From IMG/VR virus record IMGVR_UViG_2684622620_000012: 27,901 bases of DNA; one strand, written 5' to 3'. The translations under genes were made by a program, and so were the position numbers. Positions 1,107-16,562 of the stretch are shown in pieces. Source of the stretch: a virus. Lineage: Duplodnaviria > Heunggongvirae > Uroviricota > Caudoviricetes. Below the pieces are notes generated by a model, which did no database searches, was not told where the DNA came from, and saw only the letters and a list, made by a program, of their open reading frames with translations. Position 1 is the first letter of the stretch; each line of letters opens with the position of its first letter.

Positions 1107-1225
1107 ACATTTCCTTCAGTAATCTGATTCTGCTGTCAAAGTTACCAGCACTATAGTCATTCATCCACATTGCGACAAGAAGGTTACAGCACGTTCAATC
1201 ACACCTTAGGAAATCTTAGGGGGCT

Positions 1226-1499: not shown

Positions 1500-2027
1500 T
1501 CATTGATGGCCTGATTTTTCCCATTCAGCCAGGGCGTTTAGTCCTGCCTCACTCCATGTGTCCTGTTCATCGGGACAATCGCTGGCAACATAGCATAGTT
1601 CACAACGCAGCATATGAATTGCCAGCCAGGCATTACCCCGCAAATTGTATTGTTCAAAGTAATGCTGTCCTTCATCATCCTCAAGGCAGATAGCACCATC
1701 ATCAAGAAAGTGCACTTCCCAGCCTAATTCCCCGGCTGCATTCAGCACACGCTGCCGTATGTCATCGTCCGTTACTGGCGCAGGGATTTTACCGTCTCTG
1801 GCCTTAACTGCTTTCCAGAACTCGCCCCACGTCATTTCCAGCGTTCTCTCTGGCCACATTTCAGAAACGGTGTCTTTCCCCTGTGCTGGTGGGCTGTTCC
1901 GCTGATCTGTCGCATCCACATCAATTTTTTTGCCAGACATGATCACTTCGCCTTTCTCGATCCAGTCGTAAACTGTCTGGCGGCTTACGCCTTTGTATTT
2001 GGCGTATTCGGCTTTACTCATCAACAT
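1500..2027 (-). CDS. DNA-binding protein with N-terminal helix-turn-helix (MerR/excisionase-like), about 175 aa
   Basis: N-terminal SKAEYAKYKGVSRQTVYDWIEKGEV resembles HTH_17/excisionase-type motifs. GAGGTGA sits 5 nt upstream of the ATG at 2027; the track ATG at 2045 lacks an SD. Confidence 0.6.
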   Translation of the reverse strand: MLMSKAEYAKYKGVSRQTVYDWIEKGEVIMSGKKIDVDATDQRNSPPAQGKDTVSEMWPERTLEMTWGEFWKAVKARDGKIPAPVTDDDIRQRVLNAAGELGWEVHFLDDGAICLEDDEGQHYFEQYNLRGNAWLAIHMLRCELCYVASDCPDEQDTWSEAGLNALAEWEKSGHQ

Positions 2028-2127
2028 GTAGCTCACCTCATGCATATACGATAAAAAAATAATTTCATGCGGAAAGGGAATGCGTTGTGGGTATGGAGGA
2101 AAGGGGCAATAACCGCCCCTTACTGAT

Positions 2128-2400
2128 TCAGTTGCGCCAGGATGGCTGGCTAAGCGTGGTTTTCATTACATCATTGACGACCTGTTTTACGATTTCTGTG
2201 TTGGCAGTCGTGCTTTCAACATCAACAAAGCCATAATCGCCAATTTCCACCGTCAGGGATTCCAGTTTCTTCCCTAGAGCATCAGGCAACTCTCCACTGA
2301 ACCGGTGCTGAAGATTTTCCACCAGCAACGCCCTGAATGCCTCGCTGTTCTCTTTTTTCTGCCATAGCTGGCGTTTATCCACTCTGATATTTAATTTCAC
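2128..2400 (-). CDS. hypothetical protein, 90 aa
   Basis: GTG start with strong SD AAGAGGTGA 5 nt upstream; start overlaps the stop of the upstream gene (GTGA), suggesting translational coupling. Confidence 0.55.
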   Translation of the reverse strand: MKLNIRVDKRQLWQKKENSEAFRALLVENLQHRFSGELPDALGKKLESLTVEIGDYGFVDVESTTANTEIVKQVVNDVMKTTLSQPSWRN

Positions 2401-2564
2401 AGTCTCACCTCTTTAAGTGCCTTATCCATCAGTTGCCGAGCGATAACATGAATCGACGGTGCCACACCAAGCACAGATTTCTGACGCTCTTCGTCCTGGA
2501 TGCGTTGCAGGGCTTCGATCTGCCTCCGGGAAAGTAAAACTGGCTTTACTCCGTGATTTTTCAT
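2397..2564 (-). CDS. small putative ribbon-helix-helix-like DNA-binding protein, 55 aa
   Basis: MKNHGVKPVLLSRRQIEALQRIQ...: short beta-strand-like N-terminus followed by two predicted helices. ATG at 2564; stop overlaps the downstream GTG start. Fold assignment is tentative. Confidence 0.45.
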   Translation of the reverse strand: MKNHGVKPVLLSRRQIEALQRIQDEERQKSVLGVAPSIHVIARQLMDKALKEVRL

Positions 2565-2842
2565 GATGATCCCTTCTGAATGACAATAATTGCAATTATT
2601 GCACAAATTGAAATGATACCAGAGACAATTGCAATAAATGAAACGAAAAGCATCAATAAACCAACCTTCGGCACTGAATGCTCTGATTTTTCTGCAAAGG
2701 TATGGCAGATGTTGGTGCATGCAAACATAAAGGCAATAGCAGAAGAAACAGCGGGGAGTGAAAAGGGGAAGTTTTTATAAATACACGATTGTCGCCTCAC
2801 TGCAGGTTAACAGCCACAAGCTCCATGATAATAACTTGTTAA

Positions 2843-3166
2843 TTATTTCATCAGATTTTTCATTATTTGCGCGATTGAGTACACAAGCAAAAACTCGGCA
2901 GCCGCAAGAGTATAAAAAACATAAATTCGCTTAGCCCACCGACGATGAAAGAACTCCTCAGCATGGCCGGATGTTCGAGATACAAGCCATGCACCTACTG
3001 CACACAGAGCAGGTGCAATGAGCACAGTTATAAACCAGATTGTGATGCCCATCCCATACCTACTGATAATAGCCATTGGTATTGCAAAAATGAATGTTAG
3101 AGCAGCATTAGCTAATAGAATATCTTTTAAAGTATTTTCAATTAGTTTTTCTAGATTATCTTTCAT
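2843..3166 (-). CDS. small integral membrane protein, 107 aa
   Basis: Three hydrophobic segments (e.g. ILLANAALTFIFAIPMAII, ITIWFITVLIAPALCAVGAWLV); ATG at 3166 preceded by a G-rich SD; AT-rich. Confidence 0.6.
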   Translation of the reverse strand: MKDNLEKLIENTLKDILLANAALTFIFAIPMAIISRYGMGITIWFITVLIAPALCAVGAWLVSRTSGHAEEFFHRRWAKRIYVFYTLAAAEFLLVYSIAQIMKNLMK

Positions 3167-3196
3167 CTAATCCCCCCCGTTGAACATTAATATATA

Positions 3197-3219
3197 AAAG
3201 CCCCTTACTAAGGGGCTTT
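3197..3219. terminator. perfect hairpin AAAGCCCCTTA/TAAGGGGCTTT between lipoprotein and membrane protein genes
   Basis: 11 bp inverted repeat with A-run upstream and T-rich sequence downstream on the minus strand; sits just after the lipoprotein stop at 3231. Confidence 0.55.
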
Positions 3220-3230
3220 GCACGGATTGT

Positions 3231-4373
3231 TTAAAGGGAACTTTTTTTCGCCCCTTCAATTTCTGCCTGACAAATTTCGTCATTTGTAAATGAGTACTGC
3301 AAATAGACATATCCCTGAGTGGAATTGTTCGCTCTGGCCTCAATATATATAGTATCAATATTGTTTTTTAATGGTATTTCTTTTGTTCCCTTCCATGTGG
3401 CAGATAAGAAGCGTTCTTTTTTGTTTAGCCCCCTCATCCAGTCCTGAGGATCTTTCCAAATTGAACCAGCCAGCAAAAAGTCTGTAGTATCAGCCTTTCC
3501 ATACAGAGAACTTAAAGAATTACTCAATTCTTCAAACTTGGATTTAAGAGCCAATCCATAGCTATCAGTATCAATATTTTTTCCTAAAGCCCGTATTTGA
3601 CATAAACCAGCTTTCGGGGAGATCAACAAACCATACATTTCAAAATCTGCGTTTTGCTTCGGTAATTTATCAGAAGTATACAGATTCACACTGTCTGGTA
3701 GTGGCTTGAGCTTAGCACCGATCATATCTTCGATGTTTTTCTGTGTAAGACCGGCTTCTAAGCCAAACGGACCATCCGCTGGCGGGAGTAAAGGAAGTTG
3801 CTCTTGGGAATTTTTGGCTGTTACTTCCGTTTCAGTACTGTTTTTTGCGTCATTATCTTGTACTGATGCCAGCTTAACTTCAGCGAGGCCATACTTGGCT
3901 GTGAGGTACTTTTGCTGCAACATTGCCATGGTCTGCTCTTCAGTGGCAACAGTAGATAATTTTAGTACCTTTATCAGACCACCACTATACTGACGAGCAT
4001 CAGCTTTGGCTTCGTTGATTTTTGCATCTAAGCTGTCAATTTCAGTTTTAATTGAAGCCGCAAGCTCAGGATCAGGTTTTACTCCAGATACAACAACATC
4101 AATTTTGGCGCCTGATTCAATAGCATTAATACGCTGTTCCAAAAGCGCTTTATTAGTTCCTAATATTTCCAGTCTTGCTGTTGTCAGATTTTTTATCAAC
4201 CCACCAGAAAACTGCTGGTCAACTTCCTTAGCTGCTGATATTTCACCTTCCGTTTGCGACAGTTCAGCTTTAAGAGCCGCTACTTCCTGTTTCTGTTCTG
4301 GAGTTAACTCTTCTGGCCCACATCCGGTTAACATTACTATACCGACTAATGTTGCAATTAAAGTTTTATTCAT
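3231..4373 (-). CDS. lipoprotein with coiled-coil-like internal repeats, 380 aa
   Basis: Signal peptide plus lipobox (MNKTLIATLVGIVMLTGC); an internal ~40 aa segment is duplicated (QQFSGGLIKNLTTARLEILG... and RQYSGGLIKVLKLSTVATEE); ATG at 4373; AT-rich. Confidence 0.75.
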   Translation of the reverse strand: MNKTLIATLVGIVMLTGCGPEELTPEQKQEVAALKAELSQTEGEISAAKEVDQQFSGGLIKNLTTARLEILGTNKALLEQRINAIESGAKIDVVVSGVKPDPELAASIKTEIDSLDAKINEAKADARQYSGGLIKVLKLSTVATEEQTMAMLQQKYLTAKYGLAEVKLASVQDNDAKNSTETEVTAKNSQEQLPLLPPADGPFGLEAGLTQKNIEDMIGAKLKPLPDSVNLYTSDKLPKQNADFEMYGLLISPKAGLCQIRALGKNIDTDSYGLALKSKFEELSNSLSSLYGKADTTDFLLAGSIWKDPQDWMRGLNKKERFLSATWKGTKEIPLKNNIDTIYIEARANNSTQGYVYLQYSFTNDEICQAEIEGAKKSSL

Positions 4374-4507
4374 ATCCCTATTCCAAATGAAAATATTCAG
4401 ATTAATCGTATCAGGAACCCAGATGCAATTGAATATTCATCTGCTCAGCAACGTAGTAGATTTCCTCAGAAAGCATCAACAAAAAACCAAGAGAATCCCA
4501 TCCTCTG

Positions 4508-4795
4508 TTACTGACTACAATTGTTCTTTTTTTGGTATTTCCTGAATGCCTCACCATTGGGCTGATGTAATCCCATCCCGACATGTGCCCGGCTGATGGT
4601 TTTGCGCATCTCCCCGAAATTATCCTGCCTTGCTGGTGGGCGTGCTGCCTTGTGGATACATTCCGCGCGACGTTTTGCCGCCTGTTCCCGTGCCTTGTCA
4701 TCATTCGCCAGCATGATGACCTCAGCCCACCGAGCCGCCGCTCTCCGGTACAGACCACGCGCTTCCAGTGCTTCCGCTTTGCTGTCGTGAATCAT
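4508..4795 (-). CDS. PerC-like transcriptional regulator (tentative), 95 aa
   Basis: N-terminal SKAEALEARGLYRRAAARWAEVIM resembles the conserved N-terminus of PerC/Pch-type regulators as I recall it; start overlaps the FinO-like stop (ATGA). Confidence 0.45.
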   Translation of the reverse strand: MIHDSKAEALEARGLYRRAAARWAEVIMLANDDKAREQAAKRRAECIHKAARPPARQDNFGEMRKTISRAHVGMGLHQPNGEAFRKYQKKNNCSQ

Positions 4796-5370
4796 GCGCC
4801 TGTTTTCTCCTTTGCTGCCCGGCGCTGACGTTTGCGCTTCTCATTCAGCGCCACCAGCCGCGTTTCTGCGTCCTGTTGTTCCTGTGGTGTCACCTCGCCG
4901 CACGGCTGGCCTTTCAGGTCGTAGCGTACCCCACCAGCCATTAAGGCGCGGTAATAGCGCGGACACTGCGCATAAGATGCCAGCGTCGCACGTAATGCCC
5001 CTGGCCCGAATGCCAGCCCCCTGACGGCGAGATTCTGCATCAGGTCGTCAAATATTCCCACCTTAAGCGGCTTCGGTGCTTCCCGGTTGAATAATTCAGG
5101 CCACAACTCAGTAAGGCGGTTAACGCGCCTGCGATTTTTGCGCTGGCGTTTGGTCATATGCCGCCACGATGTCGCCCCTGTGAGCTTCTGCTGCGCTTTC
5201 TGGTTACCGAGCATCACTTTATGCGCCGATGGGGTTTTATCCTGCTCCTGTGCCGCCTGCGTCGTTTTCTGCGGCGTGCCGTAAATGCCTTTCGGTTTTC
5301 TGTTAATGGTCAGCTTAGTCATGCTTTGCCCCATCGTTTTTACTGATTGTTTCATGCCCGGTACTTTCAT
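4792..5370 (-). CDS. FinO/ProQ-domain RNA-binding protein with basic N-terminal extension, 192 aa
   Basis: C-terminal half (LTELWPELFN...PLKVGIFDDLMQNL...LRATLASYAQCPRYYRALMAGGVRYDLKGQPCGEV) aligns by eye with the ProQ N-terminal/FinO domain of E. coli ProQ. Start uncertain: no good SD at any in-frame ATG. Confidence 0.75.
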   Translation of the reverse strand: MKVPGMKQSVKTMGQSMTKLTINRKPKGIYGTPQKTTQAAQEQDKTPSAHKVMLGNQKAQQKLTGATSWRHMTKRQRKNRRRVNRLTELWPELFNREAPKPLKVGIFDDLMQNLAVRGLAFGPGALRATLASYAQCPRYYRALMAGGVRYDLKGQPCGEVTPQEQQDAETRLVALNEKRKRQRRAAKEKTGA

Positions 5371-5399
5371 CTACCATCAACGTCAAAACTACGAAACGG

Positions 5400-5674
5400 G
5401 ATGCATTCATATAGATGCGCTGAACGTATACTGCAATAATGGCTGGGTGGAAATCGACAAAAACATCGCCGAAAACGCCTAACGTGGTGTGGCAGTGGGC
5501 CGGAAAAACTGGTTGTTCGCAGGTTCCAACAGCGGTGGCGAACATACTGCGGTGCTGTACTTGCTGATCGGCACGTGCCGTCTGAACAAGGAGGAGCCAG
5601 AAAAATGGTTGCGTTACGTCATTGAGCATATCCCGGACTGGACGGCAAACCGGGTACGTGATCTGTTGTCCTAG
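5400..5674 (+). pseudogene. IS66-family transposase, C-terminal remnant with in-frame stop
   Basis: GWVEIDKNIAENA*RGVAVGRKNWLFAGSNSGGEHTAVLYLLIGTCRLN... matches the conserved IS66 TnpC C-terminus (EIDNN...GRKNWLF...); TAA at 5480-5482 interrupts the frame; only ~90 codons of a ~500 aa transposase are present. Confidence 0.65.
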
Positions 5675-5962
5675 AAAGCCGATCTAACCGGGCAATAAAT
5701 ATCAAAACGGTTTTGGCGAGCCGCTTGCATCTCAACAAAACAATTGATATTTAAATAATAAAAATACATACACTACAATAAGTTAAATTATGAGGTTATA
5801 TTGGGGATACTTCACATAAAGAGTTATGATGACCCCGGATAACTTTATCGAAAGTACCGATGATAATCTAAGTTAACAATGAGTTTCAGTTTTTCGATTC
5901 ATACATGACATGGCTTGCACTATGTAAGTGATTAATTATTAATATTATTTTACGCATAATCG

Positions 5963-5990
5963 AGAAGGGGGCGCTTAAGTACCCCCAAAC
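5963..5990. repeat. AAGGGGGCGCT + CTTAAGTACCCCCAAA motif, shared with the integrase upstream region
   Basis: AAGTACCCCCAA (5977-5988) recurs exactly at 16276-16287; CTTAAGTACCCC(C)AAA recurs inverted at 16299-16314; AAGGGGCGCT recurs at 16333-16342. Also forms a local hairpin (GGGGG...CCCCC) just 3' of the peptidase gene. Confidence 0.4.
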
Positions 5991-5992
5991 TT

Positions 5993-6889
5993 TTAGATAT
6001 GCCGAATAAAGGATTGGTTATTAGAGCCTTCAATAAGCTTAACTGTAGGAGTGTTGAAAAGGGTTTGTGTACAACAGTGATGTACTGTAAGAACTGCGTC
6101 CTGAAACTGGGGATGGTCTTCAAGCTGAGTGATCCGCAAACCTAATTCAATGGCTCTCTCTGCGTGGATATGCCGAGAATGATCCTTCGTATCCGTACGA
6201 TTGTTTAAGCTTTTGACAATCGCAGTGGCGAGTTCGCTACGCCGAGGTTCAGGTAAATCTTTAAGCATTCCATTTTTTAACCATTCAGTAACCAAATCAT
6301 CGGCAAGCTGAATAGCTTTGCTAGCTGTATCAAAAATGGTAGGTGGGTAGCGCGAGATGATTGTTTGCCAAATCGGGAGGCTGGAAGGTTCTTTTTGAAT
6401 GCTATCAATAGCATTTTTTAACTCTTCCAAAATACCATAAGCTGAAAGACCACCAAAGATATGAGGATCAAAAGGTCCGATACTTGAATGATGCCCCATT
6501 ACAATTTCTTTGCAGGCACACGCAATCATTGTTCCTGCAGACATGCTCATTTGAGGAACAATGGCCCGAATATCACCATTAAAAAGCTTTTTAAGGTAGT
6601 AAACCAGAGACTCAGCCGCAGTTATAGAACCACCAGGGGTATGCAAGAAAAGGTCTAAGCCTTTCGTTCTATCCATTCCGTTAACAACAGCCATGAAACC
6701 ATTTTTGTCATCATCATTGATGCTGACATGCTGATGATTACCGTTATGTAAAAAGTCTGTGTAGTAACATATTACGTTTCTATCAGTACTGTCACTCAAA
6801 GCTTTTATGTACTTACGGCGGACAATATCAAAGCGAGAATCGTCTTGGAGGCTTTGGATTTCCTCCAAGACTTGGGCCAGATTGGGCAT
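5993..6889 (-). CDS. ClpP/crotonase-fold serine peptidase (S49/SDH-like family), 298 aa
   Basis: [20 protein letters not shown]...[23 protein letters not shown] matches the TPGG...SAGT nucleophile region of ClpP/SppA/serine-dehydrogenase-type proteases; AAGGA sits 8 nt upstream of the ATG; AT-rich. Confidence 0.65.
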
Positions 6890-6907
6890 GGGATGGTAAC
6901 GTCCTTG

Positions 6908-7132
6908 TTAAGCTTTTGTAGTGGTGCTTACATGCAAAGTTGAGTAGCCAGTTGTTCTGGTAGAACACTTAAGCTTAGTCATCTCATGTTGATGAGAAAA
7001 ACTTGCAACACCGCTTAAGCCGCCGAACTCATGGCTCATTGCGCCAAATTGTTGTGGGAACTGGATACCTGAAGTATTTGATGCCACAAGTCCCGTTTCC
7101 AAGAGAATTTTTTCGTAATTGATTTCAGCCAT
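6908..7132 (-). CDS. small hypothetical protein, 74 aa, upstream partner of the peptidase
   Basis: ATG at 7132 with GGAG 8 nt upstream; stops 18 bp before the peptidase start. S/T/G-rich with no recognised motif. Confidence 0.4.
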   Translation of the reverse strand: MAEINYEKILLETGLVASNTSGIQFPQQFGAMSHEFGGLSGVASFSHQHEMTKLKCSTRTTGYSTLHVSTTTKA

Positions 7133-7210
7133 GTTAGTACTCCGCTAAATGTAGTGCTTGCGTCAATGCTTCGACACTACATGTTGTTTTTATAGTTCTT
7201 TTTAGACAGA

Positions 7211-7244
7211 AAAACCCCGCTGTCTGGCGAGGTTTTATTTTTCT
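7211..7244. terminator. hairpin AAAACCCCGC...GCGAGGTTTT with flanking T-runs
   Basis: ~10 bp imperfect stem with loop TGTCTG, followed by TTTATTTTTC on plus and TTTTTC on minus; separates the helicase-fragment region from the peptidase operon. Confidence 0.35.
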
Positions 7245-7379
7245 TATGCTGATAATAGCAGCAATTATAAGAAGTCAAAGTCTTTTTATGTAAATTTTAA
7301 GCTGTTAGGGGTGATTTTTCTCTAACTTGTTGATTCGTTCTCAAGCTAAGTCATGTTTTAAGAGCGGCAACTGCACTAA

Positions 7380-8274
7380 TAACCTGCCCGTTCTCAGACA
7401 TGATTCGTGAAAATGCGAGACGTTTCAGCTGCTCCATATCGAGTCCAGGAGCCCGTAGTAATGCATCAGACAGTTCCTGCTACTTTCCGCTGTACATCGA
7501 CAGCAGCATTTTCCTGACTGCTGCGCTCGAACCTACCGAATGCCTGAACATCATCAGATGCCAGTGGTTTAACCGGTGAGAATCTGTTCATCAGATAATC
7601 GAGAATGTTTGCAGTCTGCTTGCTTACGGCAGACACACCACGAGTAAAGGATTTAAGCGTGTCCAGATTCCACCCGCTCTGCGGTTTTTTGCCTGTTCGT
7701 TAAAATCCGGATCGTTGCGGATAACGTCAAGCAATTCTGCCTCTACTTCTGCCCGCTGCGCCATGACGCGTAGGTTAGTCAGTTCGCCGACCATGCCGCA
7801 GAATAAAGCATCCATCTGAGTATTTGGCGCAGCAACCTTACCGGCATAATCCACCAGCATTCCCACGCAATCAGCTAGCCGCTTCAGGTGGTCACAGAAG
7901 GCGTACAGCTTTACCTCCAGTGCCTCTTTGCTGTTCCGTTTCCTCAGCAGCAGCGCCCGCTCTTTTTCCGGGGTCCTTATCTTCCTCACTGACGCGACAG
8001 TTAAACTGGAAAATAACACGGCGACGGGCAACGCTTCCGGCGTGTTCGGTAAAAATCATCGGCGTATTATTCGTGGCCACAACCACCGCCCGGCATATTC
8101 TGTAAAACTTACGCTCTGTCCCTGTCGCATCCAGTGCGCAATCATGATCAGAGTTCTGGTAAAGCGGTGAATATCGCCGCATAGTCCACATGATGTCGCA
8201 AAACTTTTCAGCTCTTCACGCTCTATGTAAGTCATACCCTGAGGTATGTAACGTTCTGTTTTCATTTTTAACAT
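7380..8274 (-). pseudogene. decayed C-terminal fragment of a D5/P4-alpha-type (SF3) primase-helicase
   Basis: Three broken ORFs (8056..8274, 7892..8191, 7624..8031). The middle one carries VVVATNNTPMIFTEHAGSVARRRVIFQFN, resembling SF3 helicase motif C plus the downstream RR...F segment of D5/P4 primases. No Walker A/B upstream; frame changes and an in-frame stop present. Confidence 0.4.
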
Positions 8275-8280
8275 TCCTGA

Positions 8281-8680
8281 TTTTTTAATTCCTCACCTGC
8301 TGCGCAGTGAGAATTTATGAAGTTAATAACAATATGATTTTAAATATATTTTTAAGCACTCACTTTTTAATCCTTATATATACGCAAAAGTGAGGTAAAT
8401 AGTTAAGTTTTAGTTAATATCTTGCATGGTATGTTTTTTAACCTACCTGTTATTTTTATTACCTCATTTCTATTAACTCACCATTCCTCACTTTTGTTCC
8501 TCACTTTTTGTTATTCTTGTTCTGCTCCTCAGTCGTTTTCTTTATTGTTGTAATATGTTGTTTTGCAATGTTTTTTTAATTCCTCATTTTTTGATCTATA
8601 TACAGGTGAGAAAGTGAGGAAAACAGGGATGATTTTTAAATATTCCCTTCCCCCCTCACTTTTACGCTTCACTTTTTACA
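8281..8680. repeat. iteron-rich AT-rich region (more than 10 copies of TTCCTCACTTTT in both orientations), candidate origin
   Basis: Copies at about 8291, 8358, 8388 (inv), 8461, 8477, 8486, 8499, 8581, 8606-8620 (inv pair), 8653, 8668; exact 15-mer TTTTTTAATTCCTCA at 8281-8295 and 8573-8587; lies immediately 3' of the helicase gene. Confidence 0.6.
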
Positions 8681-10088
8681 GTGGGCGCACATCATCACCG
8701 TCAATAGCGATTACGCCGTCACCTTCCAGCTTGTACAGCCAGCGCCGGAAGTTTTTCATCTCATACCCCAGCTTTTTCATGTCATCGCGCAACAACGGAA
8801 TAGTACATTTATCTCCGCGTTGCGTGCGTGAACGAATACAACCCCATAGTGCGGCGTGATTCTCCGTCTTGTTCCCAGCTTCCTCGATGCGCTCCAGTTC
8901 AACCGGCGGACGGGGCTTATCCTCCAGCACCAGCGACGTGATTAACTCCCCGCCCTCATCCTTGAAAAGCTCAACCTCGCGCAAATCGCAAGCCATTTCT
9001 TTCAGTTCCTCCGCATCCTTCATCTTGGTACATGCGATAACCAGGGCTTCACTGCCTGCACCTTCACGGCGTATCCGGTATTCTGCATCCAGTGCTGCAC
9101 GAAACGCACTGGAACCGCGCGCACCCTTTGTTTCATCCTTGCCGGAATGGTGAATTACCAGCACTGTAGCGCCTGTACGTCGTTTCAGTTCGTCACATCC
9201 ATGGACAAATGCCCCCATATCCCGCGCATCATTTTCATCGCTGCCACCAAAGCAACGCGCCAGAGTATCCAGAATAATCATGCGTACAGGTTTACCCGTT
9301 TCCTGCTCAACCTGTCGGGCAGCAATAACCATTTCATCAACATCACCCGGTGCGGCCGGAAAAATTGGACGATTTACCAGGTATAGATTTTTCACCTGCT
9401 CACTGTTCACCAGTTCCCATGCCTTGATACGACGAGGAACACCGATCCCGCCCTCACCAACGACATACATCACCGCACCATGTACAACCCTGCGACCTCC
9501 CCACGGGATACCGGTAGCAACATGACACGCCCACGAACACGCAAGGAACGACTTATAAGAACCGCTCGCACCGTATGTGCTACATAGCGAATTAGCCGGA
9601 ATCACGCCCTTAACTACATAGCTAAGCTGTGAATCATATCCTTCCGATCCAATGCTCATTGGTAGCGTGGTTTTTCGCTGGCTGTATTGCTCGTCAGTAA
9701 GTATTTCCCCGCGCTCAGCCTGTTCGCGGATCCGTTGCAGGTAGTCGTGCCAGTTCTCCGGCTCCCCGTCGGTGATACCTTTGTATAATTTCGCCTCCTG
9801 TACGCCAGCCAGCGCCAGCTTTTCAGCGATAGCATTGATCTGGATTGGTTCGATCTCCCCCGCGAGATAGACACGCGCAAAGCGGCGTTCATCGTCGACA
9901 ATGCGGATATTCGCCAGGTCTGCCAGTTGCTTTGGCCCCAGGTAAACAGGTGGTACGTTATCGCCGTGTTTTCGTCCTTCGCTTTCAATCCAGTGTTGAG
10001 CATGGGCGTAAGCATCCGTCCCGGCAAAAATGATTACCTCGGTGAATTTATCCTTCGGCTGATATTTTAAATTCGGTGCGTTTTTCAC
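8676..10088 (-). CDS. RecA-like NTPase, RepA/DnaB-type replicative helicase (AAA_25-like), 470 aa
   Basis: P-loop YGASGSYKS, Walker B-like MIILDTLARCF, and VLVIHHSGKDETKGARGSSAF typical of RepA/DnaB-family helicases; GTG start with GGGAGGT 6 nt upstream, overlapping the upstream stop. Confidence 0.7.
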   Translation of the reverse strand: MKNAPNLKYQPKDKFTEVIIFAGTDAYAHAQHWIESEGRKHGDNVPPVYLGPKQLADLANIRIVDDERRFARVYLAGEIEPIQINAIAEKLALAGVQEAKLYKGITDGEPENWHDYLQRIREQAERGEILTDEQYSQRKTTLPMSIGSEGYDSQLSYVVKGVIPANSLCSTYGASGSYKSFLACSWACHVATGIPWGGRRVVHGAVMYVVGEGGIGVPRRIKAWELVNSEQVKNLYLVNRPIFPAAPGDVDEMVIAARQVEQETGKPVRMIILDTLARCFGGSDENDARDMGAFVHGCDELKRRTGATVLVIHHSGKDETKGARGSSAFRAALDAEYRIRREGAGSEALVIACTKMKDAEELKEMACDLREVELFKDEGGELITSLVLEDKPRPPVELERIEEAGNKTENHAALWGCIRSRTQRGDKCTIPLLRDDMKKLGYEMKNFRRWLYKLEGDGVIAIDGDDVRPL

Positions 10089-10375
10089 TTCTTACCTCCC
10101 GCAACCAACATTGCCCGGATTTTTTTAATATTCGTGGCTGCACGTCTCGCCACCGCCTGTTGTTTGTTTTCAACCAGAATAAAATCACGCTCAAACTGAC
10201 GGCGCGGCATTACGCAGTCATATTCGTAAGCCTCACGGCGGTAGGTGATATTGCCTGGCGTAACGTGACGAATAACCACTCGTCCCCCACGTCTGGTGTC
10301 GCGGTAAATATCTCCGTGTCTGATTTCAGGCCGAGAGAGACCGCTGGCAGTAAAGCCAGAATTTTTCTTTTTCAT
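10085..10375 (-). CDS. hypothetical basic protein, 96 aa
   Basis: Member of a chain of tightly packed minus-strand small genes; stop overlaps the helicase GTG start. Confidence 0.5.
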   Translation of the reverse strand: MKKKNSGFTASGLSRPEIRHGDIYRDTRRGGRVVIRHVTPGNITYRREAYEYDCVMPRRQFERDFILVENKQQAVARRAATNIKKIRAMLVAGGKK

Positions 10376-10379
10376 GGTT

Positions 10380-10580
10380 TTATTTTCCTGTCAGCAGTTC
10401 CGGTTTTATTTCCGCACGAATACAAAGTTCAGAAAAAAATTCAGGAGAACCAACAATCTCATTACTTTTCAGTCGGCATTGTGATTTCACTTTCCCTTTA
10501 TCTAGGTAAACCAGTACGCGTCCGGTGAAATCATCTGGCACATTAAGCACTACGGGTACATGCGCTTCATGATTATGCAT
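10380..10580 (-). CDS. hypothetical protein, 66 aa
   Basis: Start overlaps the upstream gene stop; no recognised motif. Confidence 0.45.
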   Translation of the reverse strand: MHNHEAHVPVVLNVPDDFTGRVLVYLDKGKVKSQCRLKSNEIVGSPEFFSELCIRAEIKPELLTGK

Positions 10581-10806
10581 GGCTTACATCCTCCGTGAAT
10601 TTTCTTCTGTAACGCGTCTCTGCCACATATTCCGCATAGTCTGACGCAATACTAAGAATCATTTCACCCTCTGACTTGTAGCCACTGGTATTGATAAGAA
10701 AATATGCAGCTTTCATCATGTCAGCAACGCTCAACAATGCGCCCGCTGCATCTTCCTGTGCGCCATCAAATTCCCGTTTCAGGGAATTAAAACGATCATC
10801 ACGCAT
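10573..10806 (-). CDS. hypothetical acidic protein, 77 aa
   Basis: Start overlaps the upstream stop; no recognised motif. Confidence 0.45.
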   Translation of the reverse strand: MRDDRFNSLKREFDGAQEDAAGALLSVADMMKAAYFLINTSGYKSEGEMILSIASDYAEYVAETRYRRKFTEDVSHA

Positions 10807-11164
10807 GTTTACCCCCCTGAATGACCTGATAACCGCAACTGGTCAGCAACTCGATAAATTCCGGCAGTGTGCCGAAACAGCAATCATCACGCAGCCGTTC
10901 GCAGGATACCTCGACGCCGTTTTCGTAGTGACTCACCATACGTCCGGTAAAATGCAGATCATCATCGTGATGACTCGTTGACGGCTTAATCAGTCGCGCA
11001 CGTTCCGCCAGTTCCAGCAATGCTTCAACGCTTCCGGCAATTGCACCATCCGGCAGGTGATAATTACGCACTATGCGCCCGTTCTCCACATTGACCAGCA
11101 ACTGCCCGGTAAATTTCTCGTCAAACTGAATGCTGTTAAGGTCAGAAATTGACAGGTTATGCAT
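10799..11164 (-). CDS. hypothetical protein, about 121 aa
   Basis: ATG at 11164 with AGGAGG upstream, 2 nt after the upstream stop; the track ORF extends to 11182 without an RBS. Confidence 0.5.
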   Translation of the reverse strand: MHNLSISDLNSIQFDEKFTGQLLVNVENGRIVRNYHLPDGAIAGSVEALLELAERARLIKPSTSHHDDDLHFTGRMVSHYENGVEVSCERLRDDCCFGTLPEFIELLTSCGYQVIQGGKHA

Positions 11165-11381
11165 AGTGCACCTCCTGCACATCAGCCATGATAATTTTTC
11201 CGGCCTTATCCAGTGCCTGATCGGCTTTTAGCTGCACAAATGCTAAATAATGGAAGATGCATTCTGATTCTCTGGCTGCGTGTTTATGCGCCACACCAGC
11301 GATAGCAGAAATCTCAATAAGTGAATCCATCAGCGTTTTGATAGTGTCTACCGCTGCATCAGGCCATGTTGCATTACACAT
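11157..11381 (-). CDS. hypothetical protein, 74 aa
   Basis: ATG at 11381 overlaps the stop of the upstream gene. Confidence 0.45.
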   Translation of the reverse strand: MCNATWPDAAVDTIKTLMDSLIEISAIAGVAHKHAARESECIFHYLAFVQLKADQALDKAGKIIMADVQEVHYA

Positions 11382-11739
11382 GCTCCACCTCCTGGCGAAT
11401 ACGGGCAGTGAATACCATCACGCAGCCATCAGGAGATTGCTGGCGTGCTTCCTGTTCGCTGGTGGCCTCGATGTGAATCACGCGCGGTTGTGCCGTACTC
11501 AGGGCGATAAAACGCCATATAAAATTGTTTTCGCATTTCTGAATAAACAGCGTGTTTTCTTCGCGCCCTTTCCATGTTGCCGAGATATAGCCCATGTCAT
11601 TGAGCATCTTGCAGGCATCAACCAGCGTATCGGCGGCTACGTGTACAGTGTTTTTACCGTCAGCCATGCAATCACGGTGCACCGCCAGGAAGGTGTATAT
11701 AAATTTAGGGTGAGTTTGAGTATGCTGTGTTCCAGCCAT
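11374..11739 (-). CDS. hypothetical protein, 121 aa, first gene of the early operon
   Basis: ATG at 11739 with GAGGT 7 nt upstream; the track ORF runs on upstream to 12831 in the same frame, but that upstream part looks non-coding or frameshifted. Confidence 0.5.
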   Translation of the reverse strand: MAGTQHTQTHPKFIYTFLAVHRDCMADGKNTVHVAADTLVDACKMLNDMGYISATWKGREENTLFIQKCENNFIWRFIALSTAQPRVIHIEATSEQEARQQSPDGCVMVFTARIRQEVEHV

Positions 11740-11813
11740 AATCGTTACCTCATTTAACGGTTTGGTTAGACGCCCTGCATGTGTTGCGAGCACTGCGGGG
11801 CGTTGCTCTTTTA

Positions 11814-11861
11814 GGTGTATTTCACCTTTGCTTTTTAATTTACTTACTGGTGAAATACACT
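11814..11861. promoter_or_regulatory. operator-like inverted repeat GGTGTATTTCACC ... GGTGAAATACAC(T) in a divergent promoter region
   Basis: 12/13 bp inverted repeat separated by 22 bp, between the early operon start (11739) and the divergent RHH gene (11927); TATACT -10-like hexamer at 11891-11896. Confidence 0.5.
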
Positions 11862-11926
11862 TCAAGCCTTTTTTTATCATTTTTTTTGCGTATACTGACA
11901 TACACCAATTTTTAGGAGATCCAGAA

Positions 11927-12106
11927 ATGGCAACTGGTGCAAAGAACGCAAAATCACAAATGACAACTGTCAGAATCCCACATGAAGTAATGGATGATAT
12001 TGAGCAACTTAAAGAACCTGGCGAAAGTACCGCTGGTTTTTTAGTTACTGCTGCAAAAGGCGAGATCAAACGCCGCCAGCGCCGCAAGGCCAAAGAACAG
12101 GAGTAA
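11927..12106 (+). CDS. small ribbon-helix-helix-like regulator, 59 aa
   Basis: AGGAGAT SD 6 nt upstream of the ATG; MTTVRIPHEVMDDIEQL fits an RHH beta-strand plus helix; divergent from the early operon; basic C-terminal tail. Confidence 0.5.
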   Translation: MATGAKNAKSQMTTVRIPHEVMDDIEQLKEPGESTAGFLVTAAKGEIKRRQRRKAKEQE

Positions 12107-12823
12107 CCATCACCAGCGCCGTGGTGTGAGGGACTACGGTGCATCGTTTTACAGGGCAGCGCCATGACCAACAAAGAATCAACCAATACACCATCACCGG
12201 CACGGAAAAGACAGCGCAGAAAGATAGCGTACGAGCATGAGTCAAACAGATTCGCGCCCTGTGCGTTTATCCTTGAGAAATTCCTTAAAGAGTACAGGCG
12301 CACAAAAATGGGATCGCATACCTGGAAAACATCGCGGCATGGCGATGTTAAAGAGCAGGAATAGCCCACCAGCAAGCCAGCATATTCACCATAATGACCC
12401 TCAGTTAAACATAGAGTCATTGGTGCAAAGCTGACACATTGCCCACCAGCCGCAAATCTGGCATTGTTGGCGATGCGTTCAAGTATGTAGCTTTCCCACT
12501 GGCGGCCCTCTGCGGTCGCCTTTGTTTTATCCAGAACGAAATCAGACATCAGATTGATCAGCACCTGGCGACCTGACAAAATCGCATCAGTCGCGCCACC
12601 AGCAAAATTTTTTGCTTTTCGGACAGTGTGATCAACGACATTTTGCAGCAAAATATTCTGCATTTCTGGCGTGCTGTAGTAACGGTGATCAGCGCCTTCA
12701 CTCTGTGCGACCACAACGCTATAATCTGCCTCGTAGACAGTAAGCAATATGGCGCAGTAGGCTATTCGTTCACAAAGGCGCTCCGGCAACGGGGCGCTTT
12801 CTCTTTTTGTAACGGTCAGAGCG

Positions 12824-13624
12824 TTACACATGGCTGTTTTCCTCCATGCGACGGGCTAACCAACGCTGCGAAAGACGAATTAATTCAGCCTTCCGCTGGT
12901 GGTAGTCCTGGCCTAACTCAATCAGCGTGATATTGCTCTGCTCAAGGTAAGAAAGGTGCTCAAGCTGCAACGTGCTCATGTGGTCGCGTGGTTCGCCTGT
13001 AATGCCGTTCGCCAGTGCCCACTGTTTTGCAGTCATGCCACCCAGCACGATACGCGCCAGCATGCTCGCTTCCGTGGTGTAGTGGTGCTGGAGTGTGTTT
13101 TTACCCAGTTCAGCCCGGTACGCCTCCAGCGCGGCACACATTGGCTTAAAGTAGCTGGCAACTGTGATACGGGCTTTCAGTTCCCGGCGTAACGCTGCGG
13201 AACGAACAGGCGCAACCTTGTGTAGCTCCTCCTCGCATTTGATAAAGTACTGGCGAACGGCGCGGCCCTGTTCGGTACGTTCGACCATCGCCAGTTCTTT
13301 CGCCATGTTCACTGTGATGATGTACTCAAGAGCGGTTTGCTGGCGAGATTTTGCGCTCACCGGATCGGGTCGGCTCAAATATTCAACAACCTCATAATCC
13401 ACGCCTTCCGTGAACCCGTATTCTTCAATGCGCCCCTTGATCCACGAACGGAAAACGCGCCCTACACCTAACGCCTTATGTAACGCTCTGGCGCTAACAA
13501 TAGTGGTTTCACTCCCGCCAATAACGCCGGAAATAATCGGGATAATTTCGCCGAAATTTTGCAGATTCTGGTTTTCAGGCCGAACGAAGCCCCGCCCCTG
13601 TACGGGCGTTTTTGGAAATTTCAT
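12824..13624 (-). CDS. phage antirepressor-like protein (AntA-type N-terminal domain), 266 aa
   Basis: TTIVSARALHKALGVGRVFRSWIKGRIEEYGFTEGVDYEV resembles the AntA/AntB antirepressor N-terminal domain; downstream of alpA on the same strand. Confidence 0.6.
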   Translation of the reverse strand: MKFPKTPVQGRGFVRPENQNLQNFGEIIPIISGVIGGSETTIVSARALHKALGVGRVFRSWIKGRIEEYGFTEGVDYEVVEYLSRPDPVSAKSRQQTALEYIITVNMAKELAMVERTEQGRAVRQYFIKCEEELHKVAPVRSAALRRELKARITVASYFKPMCAALEAYRAELGKNTLQHHYTTEASMLARIVLGGMTAKQWALANGITGEPRDHMSTLQLEHLSYLEQSNITLIELGQDYHQRKAELIRLSQRWLARRMEENSHV

Positions 13625-13701
13625 AAAAACTCCTGCTATCGAATTAAGTTACTTTTATTTGCTGGTGGATAGCTGGGGGCAATAGCCCCGTAGCCATTTA
13701 A

Positions 13702-13899
13702 TCAGGTAGCTGTTCCGCGTGATTCCGCAATACGCTGATTAATCCACTCGTCAATTTCACTCTCAACGAAAGCAATAGCTCGCGAGCCAATTTTAACTGA
13801 TGCAGGAAATTTACCTTGCCCCATAAGGCGATAAATCCATGCCTTGCTATATCCAGTTCTACGCTGAACTTCTGTTAAACGAATAAGCGTATTTGACAT
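13702..13899 (-). CDS. alpA: AlpA-family transcriptional regulator, 65 aa
   Basis: LIRLTEVQRRTGYSKAWIYRLMGQGKFPASVKIGSRAIAFVESEIDEWI is a close match to the AlpA (CP4-57 regulatory protein) HTH signature. Confidence 0.85.
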   Translation of the reverse strand: MSNTLIRLTEVQRRTGYSKAWIYRLMGQGKFPASVKIGSRAIAFVESEIDEWINQRIAESRGTAT

Positions 13900-14093
13900 A
13901 TATTTACCTCATAACGTCTACTCAATTTGACGAGGTAATCATGGCACAGAAATAACGAATATTTTCATACCCTCAGGCCTAATGGTTACCGGAAGGAAAT
14001 TAACCCTAAGGGTGATGGTAAAATTGACGGGGAAGATAAAAAAATACCCTCAGGGTAACAGTAAATCACCCTCAGGGTATGCGGTATGGTGCG

Positions 14094-14891
14094 TTAATCC
14101 GGCTTTGCGTTCTTTTGGCTGTTGTCTCGGTTAATAGGGCAGGCAGTCCTCTCTATGAGCGTTGCAAGTGCATTACTTGCCCCCCACTGCTTAAGCTCCC
14201 TAGTTATCGCTTCTTGATTTCCCCTGGTGGCAAAATCATTTTCTGGATCGTAATTGGCCCACTCTCTGTTTCTAATCTCAATAGCCTTAGCTAATGGGTC
14301 TTTATCCCAGTATTTATATAAGTGTATCGGGCGCTCTTGCTCTAACTGCTCTATCCTTGCCCTTAACTCTGCGTTTTCTTTTTCCAGCATTGCGATTTGG
14401 GATAATAAATCATCCTCTGTACGCAACTCTTTCTTTTCAATATCGCGTCCTTGTGCCTCGTCATTTTCAGAAGAGTTAGCGCCTTCCAGCTTCGTTAACG
14501 CGTCAAGGACATCGGGAAAAATTGCGAAAATTTCACCCCTTATAAATCCAATGTTCTCAAATTCGGGATCTTCCCAATAACCGGACACCAGAAAACCATT
14601 TTCATCCCTCTCACCAGGTAAACAACCACGTTTCCGAACCGCATTCAGATTTCTATAAAGAACATCATAATCAAATTCATCCCGATACGGGTTACAAAAA
14701 GATTCCAACAGCTTAAATTCATTTACTGTGTACAGGCGGATATGTTCTCCGCTTATTCTCCTGAGTATCCAAGTTATGACATCTGAAACATCATAATCAT
14801 CACCAGCGACCTTAAGCACGACCTCAAGAAATTCACGTAAAGAAATAAAATCTTTTTTGTATTCGTTTAATTCGGCATGAATATCAATCAT
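14094..14891 (-). CDS. hypothetical protein with central coiled coil, 265 aa; cargo gene between int and alpA
   Basis: ATG at 14891 with GAGGT 6 nt upstream; leucine-zipper-like segment LLSQIAMLEKENAELRARIEQLEQE; lower GC than flanking genes; no recognised catalytic motif. Confidence 0.6.
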   Translation of the reverse strand: MIDIHAELNEYKKDFISLREFLEVVLKVAGDDYDVSDVITWILRRISGEHIRLYTVNEFKLLESFCNPYRDEFDYDVLYRNLNAVRKRGCLPGERDENGFLVSGYWEDPEFENIGFIRGEIFAIFPDVLDALTKLEGANSSENDEAQGRDIEKKELRTEDDLLSQIAMLEKENAELRARIEQLEQERPIHLYKYWDKDPLAKAIEIRNREWANYDPENDFATRGNQEAITRELKQWGASNALATLIERTACPINRDNSQKNAKPD

Positions 14892-15019
14892 ACGCACACC
14901 TCAGCGTCCTCTACTGTAGTGGCTGTACCAGTCCGTCGAGGTGTACGGATTTTCGGGAGCGACCCTAGACACAGCCTTTTCTTTCGTCGCTCAAAGTCTA
15001 CTACTGTATACGCAACCAG

Positions 15020-16234
15020 TCATCCACATTTTCCGAACTTGCCATGCACCACGTTACCGCCATGTTCGAGCGAATCCATATAGTCGGCGTACCACTGGAG
15101 CATCTCGCGCCGCCCGTCCAGATATTGCGCATGATTGTACGTGCCACGAATTGAGTTCTTATCAACGTGTGCAAGCTGCGTTTCTATCCACGCGGTGTTA
15201 TAGCCCTGCTCATGTAAAATCGTGCTCATGGTGTGCCGGAATCCATGACCAGTAACCTTTCCGTTATAGCCGATGCGTTTAAATACTTGGTTTATGCTAG
15301 CCTCGCTCATTGTTTTCCTTGGATCATTGCGGCCGGGAAACATAAGCGGATAATTACCAGTTAATTCTTTAATCTGCCCAATAAGAGAAAGAGCCTGCTT
15401 AGACAAAGGCACCACATGAGGGCGACGCATTTTCATCCGTGAAGCAGGTATCTCCCAGATAGCCTTGTTGAGATCGATTTCATCCCATAATGCACCGCGC
15501 AGTTCGCCAGTTCGCAAACCAGTGATAATCAGTAGACGAGCCGCCATAACAACCAATGCACTTCCTGAGTAACTGGACAATGCCTTGAAAAAATCAGGCA
15601 ATTCTTTGGCTGTGAGGAAAGGATAATGATTAGATTCATGGCCTTGCATCGCGCTAGTAAGATCTGGGGCAGGGTTATACTCTGCGCGACCAGTGACTAT
15701 TGCATAGCGGAAAACTTCCCCGCACCGCTGCCTCACTTTTTTGGCTTTTTCTGTAGCACCGCGCCCCTCGATGCGTCGCAGCACATTCAGAAGTTCAAGT
15801 GGTTTGATTTCGGCAATTGGTTTTTTGCCAATGTAAGGGAACACATCTTTGTTGAAGGCTTCGAGGATATCTGAAGCATAACCAGCAGACCATTTTTTTA
15901 ATTTGCTGCTGTGCCACTCAAGGGCAATATCTTTGAAGGTATTGTTTAACTGCGTTTCCCGGGCAATCTTTTCCTCTCGTTTCGCTTCCATCGGATCGAT
16001 ACCCCCAGCGATACCCCTTTTAGCTTCTTCACGTTTTGCACGAGCATCAGCCAAGGTAACTTCAGGATACACACCTAGTGCTAACAGCTTCTCTTTACCA
16101 GCTACACGATATTTAAAGCGCCAGTATTTTCCTCCACTAGGTTTTACCAGGAGATACAGACCACCACCATCAGCCAGCTTGTAAGCCTTCTCTTTTGGCT
16201 TGGCAGTGTCTATTTGACGGGCATTGAGTTTCAC
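15020..16234 (-). CDS. int: tyrosine integrase, P4-type (DUF4102 N-terminus plus phage integrase catalytic domain), 404 aa
   Basis: N-terminal KLNARQIDTAKPKEKAYKLADGGGLYLLVKPSGGKYWRFKYR is the hallmark of P4-family integrases; C-terminal HGFRHT...LAH...RGTY contains the catalytic residues; GTG start with GGAGGT upstream. Confidence 0.9.
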   Translation of the reverse strand: MKLNARQIDTAKPKEKAYKLADGGGLYLLVKPSGGKYWRFKYRVAGKEKLLALGVYPEVTLADARAKREEAKRGIAGGIDPMEAKREEKIARETQLNNTFKDIALEWHSSKLKKWSAGYASDILEAFNKDVFPYIGKKPIAEIKPLELLNVLRRIEGRGATEKAKKVRQRCGEVFRYAIVTGRAEYNPAPDLTSAMQGHESNHYPFLTAKELPDFFKALSSYSGSALVVMAARLLIITGLRTGELRGALWDEIDLNKAIWEIPASRMKMRRPHVVPLSKQALSLIGQIKELTGNYPLMFPGRNDPRKTMSEASINQVFKRIGYNGKVTGHGFRHTMSTILHEQGYNTAWIETQLAHVDKNSIRGTYNHAQYLDGRREMLQWYADYMDSLEHGGNVVHGKFGKCG

Positions 16235-16342
16235 TTGGGGGTACCTCCACTAAACCGAACAGCAAATACCCCCAAAAGTACCCCCAATTGACTGTAGATT
16301 TTGGGGTACTTAAGTAGACGTCAAAAGACTAAAAGGGGCGCT
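16234..16342. repeat. cluster of GTACCCCCAA / GGGGTAC motifs and AAGGGGCGCT upstream of the integrase
   Basis: TTGGGGGTACC (16235-16245, inverted), ATACCCCCAAAAGTACCCCCAA (16266-16287), TTTTGGGGTACTTAAG (16299-16314, inverted), AAAAGGGGCGCT (16331-16342); one copy each also at 5963-5990. Confidence 0.5.
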
Positions 16343-16562
16343 AACATGCGGATTATAAGAGGTTTTTAAATACTTGAGTAGACTTGGGGAGACGTTAGAA
16401 TGGTGCCGATAATAGGAGTAAAACACTCGATTAATCTCGTGTTAATGCCATCACCTACGACCATTACTAATTGATTGAATCTTATAGAAAAAATCATCAT
16501 TTTCTATGCGTTACAATCAATTTTCACATTACAAACGCTCCGACACTTTAGCCGGGGAGTTT

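Follow-up and report, generated by a model that had tools for sequence, protein, structure and literature searches.

Candidate integrase arm-type sites at one end of a thrW-integrated phage satellite, with orphan copies of their motif inside its cargo cassette

Short repeats shared by two places about 10.3 kb apart, one of them beside an integrase gene, raise the question of whether they are recombinase sites delimiting an integrase island or belong to an element with other limits. The whole stretch of DNA analysed, here called the window, is 27,901 nt long, and the three matches listed by the first-pass annotation were all recovered in it: AAGTACCCCCAA occurs exactly at 5977-5988 and 16276-16287; the reverse complement of 16299-16314, CTTAAGTACCCCAAAA, differs at one position from CTTAAGTACCCCCAAA at 5974-5989; and AAGGGGGCGCT at 5965-5975 is matched by AAGGGGCGCT at 16333-16342. 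The window is best explained as holding most of a ~19-kb EcCIMP1-like phage-inducible chromosomal island (PICI) in the 3′ end of thrW, which forms a tandem with a second phage-like element likewise integrated in thrW. To this whole explanation, comprising P-arm integrase sites at the right and an orphan internal motif pair at the left, a probability of about 0.8 was assigned.

Repeat copies and the ends of the element

The motif GTACCCCC was found in three copies in the window against 0.21 expected, at least three being reached in 0/100 shuffles. Allowing up to two mismatches, the 12-mer AAGTACCCCCAA presented six copies, at 5801(-), 5977(+), 16235(-), 16264(+), 16276(+) and 16300(-), against 1.46 expected, and none of 100 shuffles reached six; at one mismatch or fewer the number was also six, confined to the two clusters 5801/5977 and 16235-16311. 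In the element interior (window 1-16200), two matches with at most one mismatch were observed against 0.047 expected, and 0/300 shuffles yielded two or more. Therefore, the clustering is more than chance, and the observation of the first-pass annotation is confirmed.

The element and its in-window end were delimited as follows:
1..16419, minus strand, in-window part of an EcCIMP1-like PICI (99.95% match to L001, the element of strain APEC20/16)
16399..16419, no strand assigned, attR core and direct repeat AATGGTGCCGATAATAGGAGT, 21 bp (match ends and starts across genomes, intact thrW)

The right boundary was read from the points at which matches stop or start across thousands of genomes. In satellite-only genomes the match to the window ends at about 16417-16419, and in satellite-free genomes it begins at 16395-16404, which puts the right end at 16399-16419, 57 bp past the position (16342) where the first-pass annotation had ended the island. 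Read as the reverse complement, 16401-16419 is the final 19 nt of tRNA-Thr thrW, this being the only copy of the thrW core in the window. In strains 4314, ARS-C101, PC6 and MP1 the core position, directly beside the same P arm, is occupied by an intact thrW. The empty site of the satellite-free genome LZHX12 consists of left flank, core and right flank, with the chromosomal flank joined directly to window 16399 onward; the distal CP4-6 end of K-12 gives a match to this flank.

At the other side, window 1-16417 aligns in a single block, at 99.95% identity, with L001 5002-21418. The APEC20/16 element extends over L001 2056-21420, and its left end carries the repeat AATGGTGCGATAATAGGA followed 55 bp on by ATACCCCCAAAAGTACCCCCAA, the true attL lying at L001 2056-2152. 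Judging from this near-identical relative, the left end of the window element would lie ~2.9 kb beyond position 1, so that the whole PICI, integrated in thrW, would measure ~19.4 kb, with its left 2.9 kb, attL included, outside the window. The core AATGGTGC(C)GATAATAGGA is present at window 16399-16417, at L001 2056-2076 and in the empty site L002, and hence stands as an identical direct repeat at both element ends and in the empty site, as in attachment sites of tyrosine integrases.

The annotation comprises int, an HTH/AlpA-like gene, antA, an Icd-like gene, DUF4222, a RepA helicase, ProQ and PerC, with iterons at 8260-8680. The size of 19.4 kb, the thrW site, int, the alpA-like gene and the replication module agree with the gene content, size and attachment site of Gram-negative PICIs. 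No virion structural gene was matched among the proteins scanned, a subset of the ORFs. Ten proteins scanned against PHROGs/Pfam, with partial coverage of small ORFs, gave no match to the P4 capsid-hijack proteins Psu, Sid and Delta, nor to Epsilon or the Alpha primase, and P4-family membership was seen for the integrase only.

The left-hand copies and the cargo cassette

Comparison with the sister elements showed that the 5963-5990 copy is internal to the element and is no island end. It is carried by a rare cargo cassette, flanked by the ProQ/FinO gene on one side and the replication origin on the other, in whose place L003 and L004 have other sequence. The cassette was found in 6/5426 complete E. 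coli genomes and, in the same context, in two metagenome contigs. Its features are:
5346..8082, no strand assigned, rare internal cargo cassette, 2.7 kb (absent from L003 and L004)
5414..5756, plus strand, IS66-family transposase gene, 3′ remnant, at the cassette's left edge (annotation)
5801..5812, minus strand, internal orphan copy I1 of the arm motif, AAGTATCCCCAA (12-mer match, one mismatch)
5977..5988, plus strand, internal orphan copy I2 of the arm motif (exact 12-mer match)
5993..6889, minus strand, cargo gene for an SDH-family protease of the ClpP-fold serine type (Pfam PF01972)

The IS66 remnant is 84-88% identical to plasmid ISCro1/IS66 elements, and relatives of the SDH protease, at 42-53% identity, occur in many phyla. 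I2 lies within an imperfect palindrome, AAGGGGGCGCTTAAGTACCCCCAA (5965-5988), that starts 4 nt past the protease stop codon. I1, which is additional to the copies in the first-pass annotation, is inverted relative to I2.

It is possible, albeit unlikely, that the 5963-5990 copy resembles the arm motif by coincidence and is a hairpin or weak terminator following the SDH protease gene. A 6-bp GC stem (-11.7 kcal/mol) does start 6 nt past the stop codon, and the homology of this copy to the attachment region spans at most 16 nt, with a best local score of 27 that falls within the shuffle maximum of 29 (20.5 +/- 2.4). However, the fold was no better than that of shuffled sequence (z = -0.77), exact 12-mer matches are expected about 0.002 times in 16 kb, and the second copy, with one mismatch, lies only 164 bp away, whereas two such matches were never obtained in the 300 shuffles. 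Moreover, no arm motif was found near distant SDH protease loci. A Rho-independent terminator at 5965-5988 was considered separately and rejected: it was not called in the terminator scan because a T run is absent, the tail being UUCUCGAUUAU, and its z was the same -0.77.

The most likely origin of the internal pair is an att-arm fragment brought in with the cassette through IS66-associated or inter-satellite recombination. No homology of the internal copies to the attachment region was detected past 12-16 nt, and this relic origin is therefore put forward as a conjecture. The pair is probably inert, and it is very improbable that the inverted copies at 5801 and 5977 serve as functional Int-binding sites. 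Were they to do so, either Int may control read-through into the ProQ/FinO-PerC operon downstream, or a promoter-like site (5889->5860) that feeds it, or the pair may be a secondary recombination site by which Int took up the cassette with the SDH protease or is able to exchange it.

The integrase-side cluster and its attachment arms

The right-hand cluster is best read as a set of candidate arm-type integrase sites in the P arm, overlapping the int 5′ region. The relevant features are:
13702..13899, minus strand, AlpA-like excisionase or transcriptional regulator, 65 aa (PHROG 2790 and 66, E about 1e-11)
15020..16234, minus strand, P4-family tyrosine integrase, 404 aa (Pfam)
16235..16246, minus strand, arm-type site candidate M1, AGGTACCCCCAA (12-mer match)
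16264..16287, plus strand, tandem arm-type site candidates M2-M3, AAATACCCCCAAAAGTACCCCCAA (12-mer match)
16300..16311, minus strand, site M4, AAGTACCCCAAA, the inverted copy of the first-pass annotation, overlapping X1
16307..16319, plus strand, repeat X1, TACTTAAGTAGAC, candidate site of the AlpA-like excision factor
16333..16342, plus strand, AAGGGGCGCT, third match of the first-pass annotation, in the P arm (alignment A2)
16371..16383, plus strand, repeat X2, TACTTGAGTAGAC, second X copy (exact-copy search)

M1 abuts the GTG start of int, overlaps its GGAGG ribosome-binding site and, in each of the five sister elements, is separated from the element end by 173-175 bp. The tandem pair M2-M3 recurs at the far end, in the P′ arm, in each of L001, L003, L004, L085 and L090. 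Across five elements of 12.4-20 kb, EcCIMP1 among them, every match with at most one mismatch falls either 86-91 bp from the left end or 108-175 bp from the right end, the cassette variant alone departing from this. A repeat distinct from the core is thus present on both arms at fixed distances, the window's own P′ arm lying outside the window. Apart from the core, no invariant block of the P′ alignment is longer than the tandem pair, which is kept in PC6 and MP1 despite their otherwise different gene content; in the vat island, which is immobile and decayed and has a truncated int, a 12-bp deletion hits this pair. M4 is less conserved, having diverged in PC6 and MP1, and at 16333-16342 the sister elements have no invariant bases other than GGGGC. 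With an overall P-arm conservation of 94%, footprinting by conservation discriminates little there.

The integrase matched Arm-DNA-bind_3 (E = 3.6e-29), Phage_int_M and Phage_integrase, combining, as lambda/P4-type enzymes do, an N-terminal arm-type DNA-binding domain with the catalytic domain, and it shares 389/404 residues (96%) with the EcCIMP1 integrase. Position, conservation and domain content together point to Int, rather than another protein, as the probable ligand of the motif. The earlier proposal that the repeats are recombinase-binding sites is supported for the integrase-side cluster, where the Arm domain and the recurrence of the motif at the true far end in five elements speak for it, and is lost as regards the delimitation of an island. 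As for the X repeat, exact copies were found only at 16307 and 16371, and in PC6 and MP1, which have an AlpA of 81% identity, both read GACTTTAGTAGAC instead; X1/X2 is a candidate binding site of the AlpA-like factor, the gene of which is annotated as an HTH regulator in L001.

It is rather improbable that GTACCCCC is bound by some other factor (the AlpA-like protein, PerC or a host protein) and has a regulatory role outside the recombination complex. The location of M1 over the int ribosome-binding site could be purely regulatory, but the motif keeps a fixed distance from the core on each of the two arms, like arm-type sites, whereas excision-factor sites normally occur on one arm only. Furthermore, the integrase possesses an arm-binding domain, and the motif is constant where Int is 96% identical, while it is X1/X2 that changes together with AlpA.

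With the sites assigned to Int, the P arm would consist of four copies of (A/G)(A/G)(G/A)TACCCC(C)AA at 16235-16311, including one tandem pair, the distance to the 21-bp core (16399-16419) being 88-185 bp. The N-terminal domain of the integrase would bind these copies and the matching P′ tandem pair at the far end, outside the window, and the catalytic domain would act at the thrW-derived core. Arm and core binding would assemble the integration complex and, together with the AlpA-like factor, the excision complex. With candidate sites filling the int 5′ region, one of them over the ribosome-binding site, it is probable, by analogy with P4 Int and KplE1 IntS, that the integrase represses its own gene; no sigma-70-like minus-strand int promoter was called in the scan.

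The reading from which the question arose, that 5963-5990 and 16276-16342 are the two att arms of a 10.3-kb integrase island, is scarcely credible: although the copies are exact and statistically non-random and the left one lies near a change of gene content beside the IS66 remnant, it sits inside the 5346-8082 cassette, no thrW core lies near 5963 (the sole match in the window being at 16401), homology with sister elements (L001) is unbroken across 5963-5990 down to window position 1, ProQ/FinO, PerC and other core PICI genes are situated left of 5963, the true attL is at L001 2056-2152, and sister elements have no internal motif copy. Comparative genomics mapped the boundaries elsewhere, at 16399-16419 and ~2.9 kb outside the window, an outcome that the first-pass annotation had itself named as refuting its reading, and the empty-site alignment suggested as a check by the first-pass annotation joins the flank at 16399 and not at 16342.

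Known relatives and significance

EcCIMP1 is a PICI of E. coli MP1 inserted in tRNA-Thr between proA and yagU; its boundaries were established by experiment, its excision needs int and alpA, its circular junction was sequenced, its core is TCCTATTATC, and its helper-phage-dependent excision, circularisation and packaging were shown (ISME J 2025, PMC11773190). This core is the reverse complement of window 16409-16418. The two elements share integration site, core, P/P′-arm motif layout and a 96% identical integrase, as well as alpA, an antA-type antirepressor, an Icd-like protein, DUF4222, PerC and a size of about 20 kb. Beyond the int-att module, however, their DNA is mostly unrelated: the window element carries a RepA-type helicase with CCTCACTTTT iterons where EcCIMP1 has a TOPRIM/DUF927 primase, its cargo is different, and it occupies the distal thrW repeat behind another element, whereas EcCIMP1 lies next to the intact tRNA. 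Arm-type sites are not described in the EcCIMP1 paper (PMC11773190).

A model of negative autoregulation by Int and an excision factor exists for P4 attP/Int and KplE1 (CPS-53) attL/IntS-TorI (PLoS Genet 2010, PMC2951348). Common to these systems and the window element are an arm-binding N-terminal integrase domain, an int start adjoining the attachment site, arm-type sites over the int 5′ region (candidates in the window) and integration at a tRNA 3′ end. They differ in target (leuX and argW against thrW) and site sequence, and binding and autoregulation, demonstrated for P4/KplE1, are inferred for the window element.

The lambda attP has the arm-type sites P1, P2 and P′1-P′3. Like the window element, lambda has a short non-core repeat on both arms, including a tandem P′ pair, and its excision-factor repeats occupy the interval from the P-arm sites to the core, to be compared with X1/X2. 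Its integrase clade and host site are different, and it is the 3′ end of int that adjoins att, in contrast to the 5′ end here. K-12 CP4-6 (intF/ptwF) and the vat pathogenicity island have the chromosomal locus and thrW-derived repeats in common with the window element but, unlike it, are degraded or immobile. The vat island keeps a truncated copy of the window-type integrase and a decayed P arm, and CP4-6 IntF is unrelated to both integrases considered here (24% identity, in the catalytic region only).

The feature is ordinary for a known kind of element, the repeats near int being most probably routine docking sites of the integrase, located at one end of a ~19-kb phage satellite in thrW. The main value of the finding is a correct annotation, namely a ~19-kb thrW PICI with thrW-derived repeat ends in place of a 10.3-kb island. 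The tandem arrangement, together with the reversed order that the two elements show in other strains, illustrates the repeated use of each thrW repeat for attachment. The int-att module is present in about 1000/5426 complete E. coli genomes and also drives EcCIMP1, where the reported part is the 10-bp core only, and the GTACCCCC repeats provide a concrete, testable candidate arm-site set for it.

Boundaries of the satellite element at thrW

Its ORFs, and the annotated genes of near-identical loci in E. coli, identify the integrase-bearing region as a satellite-type element, with the following genes, given leftwards on the minus strand:

15020-16234, minus strand: P4-family integrase (int), with Arm-DNA-bind_3, Phage_int_M and catalytic domains
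13702-13899, minus strand: AlpA-like excisionase/regulator
minus strand: AntA-type antirepressor gene
minus strand: genes for an Icd-like protein and a DUF4222 protein
8676-10088, minus strand: RepA-type helicase, with iterons preceding the gene
minus strand: ProQ/FinO and PerC genes

A 485-aa ORF at 11374-12831 (minus strand), taken from a mechanical ORF list, is probably spurious; for the identical locus, RefSeq has just a 121-aa Icd-like gene at the downstream end of this ORF, and two small plus-strand genes farther along the span.

The right boundary was mapped by searching 5426 complete E. coli genomes by megablast with window positions 4000-18500. In many satellite-carrying genomes the match ended at 16417-16419, and in genomes with the right-hand element only it began at 16395-16404. 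The two sets of matches overlap in AATGGTGCCGATAATAGGAGT (16399-16419), and this stretch holds the 3'-terminal 19 nt of the tRNA-Thr gene thrW in reverse-complement form. ARAGORN called no tRNA gene in the window, because only this 19-nt thrW fragment is present there. An intact thrW beside proA adjoins the same integrase gene and its upstream region in strains 4314, ARS-C101, PC6 and MP1. An empty site was found in strain LZHX12, which lacks the satellite and joins the chromosomal flank directly to the right-hand element, in the order paoD, a LysR-family remnant and ...TTTGATTTTAATGGTGCGATAATAGGAGTAAAACACTCG..., being alignable with window 16399-24307. The K-12 prophage CP4-6, too, has this flank next to its distal thrW fragment.

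The first-pass annotation had proposed an integrase island of ~10.3 kb delimited by repeats at 5963-5990 and 16276-16342. This island and its left boundary proved wrong: window 1-16417 aligned with APEC20/16 (L001 5002-21418) as a single block of 99.95% identity running through 5963, so the element extends past the proposed left end and beyond the window start, and its ends are thrW-derived repeats. The left end in APEC20/16 (L001 2056-2076) passes from chromosomal flank to AATGGTGCGATAATAGGA and, 55 bp inward, to ATACCCCCAAAAGTACCCCCAAT, the same tandem pair as that at window 16264-16287. From this near-identical locus, the element would measure ~19.4 kb, its left 2.9 kb lying outside the window, and its own left end would read AATGGTGC(C)GATAATAGGA, followed ~55 bp on by ATACCCCCAAAAGTACCCCCAA, beside the yagP'/paoD flank. 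The sister elements of 4314 and ARS-C101 carry 2.6-3.9 kb more to the left of the region matching window position 1.

Past 16419 the window belongs to a different element, which has its own integrase and phage structural genes; this second thrW-integrated, phage-like element (16420-27901), in tandem with the phage-inducible chromosomal island (PICI), encodes a DUF6538-domain integrase (16506-17840), a baseplate protein, a 612-aa protein and a major capsid protein. The identification of its integrase as K-12 IntF was rejected, since identity was 24% and limited to the catalytic region. Strain 4314 carries the two elements in the opposite order (window 27294-27901 corresponds to L003 1-596), and thus each thrW repeat seems to act as an attachment site. 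The only match in a phage database search, of ~100 bp, was located in this neighbouring element, where 18286-18401 (~115 bp, within the baseplate-protein gene) shares 84-91% identity with phi92/rV5-like virulent phages, whose counterpart is variously annotated as tail fibre or tail tube initiator.

Candidate arm-type sites and the integrase

All three repeat matches first reported were recovered in the window, at the coordinates given for them. The sequence GTACCCCC occurred three times against 0.21 expected, and AAGTACCCCCAA, allowing up to two mismatches, six times against 1.46. All six matches to the latter fell into two clusters:

5801, minus strand: internal copy, additional to those first reported
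5977, plus strand: internal copy
16235, minus strand: M1
16264 and 16276, plus strand: M2 and M3, a tandem pair (16264-16287)
16300, minus strand: M4

This clustering is real and beyond chance. When motif positions (up to one mismatch) were compared in five elements of 12.4-20 kb (L001, L003, L004, L085 and L090), every match lay either 86-91 bp inside the left end or 108-175 bp inside the right end, apart from one exception, the internal pair of the L001/window variant. In the alignment of the P' arms, opposite the integrase, the tandem pair was the longest invariant block apart from the core, and in PC6 and MP1 the sites were kept, together with an integrase 96% identical, although gene content was largely different. 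As the motif is conserved on both arms and the integrase has an arm-binding domain, the right-hand cluster was read as most likely the integrase's arm-type sites in the P arm. The earlier proposal that the integrase-side repeats are recombinase sites was supported, and its placing of the island end at 16342 was not, the true end being 16399-16419.

The integration module is closely related to that of EcCIMP1, the element of strain MP1, whose circular junction has been sequenced and whose excision requires int and alpA (PMC11773190). Its reported core, TCCTATTATC (PMC11773190), corresponds in reverse complement to window 16409-16418; arm sites go unmentioned in that paper (PMC11773190). The integrase-side cluster is most likely an ordinary P arm belonging to a PICI that targets thrW, a known kind of element.

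M1 adjoins the GTG start of int and overlaps its GGAGG ribosome-binding site, and M2-M4 occupy the int 5' region. Given this placement and the int autoregulation described for P4 and KplE1 (PMC2951348), it is reasonable to infer that the integrase may regulate or repress its own gene. A consensus scan called no int promoter on the minus strand, so that an overlap of the sites with this promoter is presumptive.

The interval from the candidate arm sites to the core contains a direct repeat, TACTTRAGTAGAC, at 16307-16319 and 16371-16383. In PC6 and MP1, where the AlpA-like protein is 81% identical, both copies become GACTTTAGTAGAC; this joint change where AlpA differs suggests that they are candidate binding sites of the AlpA-like excision factor. 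A weaker third match, with two mismatches, lies at 13916-13928, 17 bp upstream of alpA.

The vat pathogenicity island, located at thrW in ATCC 25922 and MP1 (L086 20100-20300, L090 710-1227), still has the same integrase in truncated form. In this immobile island, a 12-bp deletion in the P arm takes out most of the tandem pair, consistent with decay once the island became immobile.

The internal motif pair and its cargo cassette

The copies at 5801 and 5977 lie inside a segment (5346-8082) in whose place the sister elements have other sequence. It opens with what remains of the 3' part of an IS66-family transposase gene (5414-5756), and its products are two small proteins and an SDH-family ClpP-fold protease (5993-6889). 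The segment turned up in only 6 of 5426 complete E. coli genomes and two metagenome contigs, each time in this same PICI setting. Viral contigs gave no exact-pattern match, and plasmids matched the IS66 remnant only.

Our best guess is that the pair is an arm fragment brought in with the cassette by IS66-associated or inter-satellite recombination. A functional secondary Int site is a far less likely reading. The motif was absent from all 80 loci of SDH protease relatives, which belong to other phyla. Pure coincidence is unlikely, since the 16-kb interior holds two matches (up to one mismatch) against 0.047 expected and none of 300 shuffles gave two. A relic attachment site was not borne out by extended homology: in alignments of 5757-5992, in both orientations, with a composite attP, nothing but the 12-16-nt motif could be matched, and its score fell among those of shuffles. 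Comparing it by hand with the thrW core (TACCGATGATAAT, ATGGCTTGCAC) gave no convincing match. The exact copy lies within an imperfect palindrome beginning 4 nt past the protease stop codon; the palindrome was unconvincing as a terminator (5965-5988), the scan making no call and the fold being unexceptional. A promoter-like site, CTGAAA-18-TATCAT (5860-5889, minus strand), lies between both copies, facing the ProQ/FinO-PerC genes.

Variable replication and cargo modules

Upstream of the RepA-type helicase gene, iterons at 8260-8680 are CCTCACTTTT-type repeats, direct and inverted; a sister element with a primase carries other iterons, CTGTCTACC, at the equivalent position (L003 9340-9700). The genes of the two replication proteins share DNA similarity across the part coding for the first ~128 residues (window 9705-10088, L003 11129-11512), which suggests that replication modules have been swapped. 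In APEC20/16, a GapS1-family gene adjoins the P' arm in the left cargo region beyond the window (L001 2844-4442), and sister elements have there a methyltransferase/DUF262/HEPN set or other genes; this cargo region looks like a variable hotspot near the attachment site.
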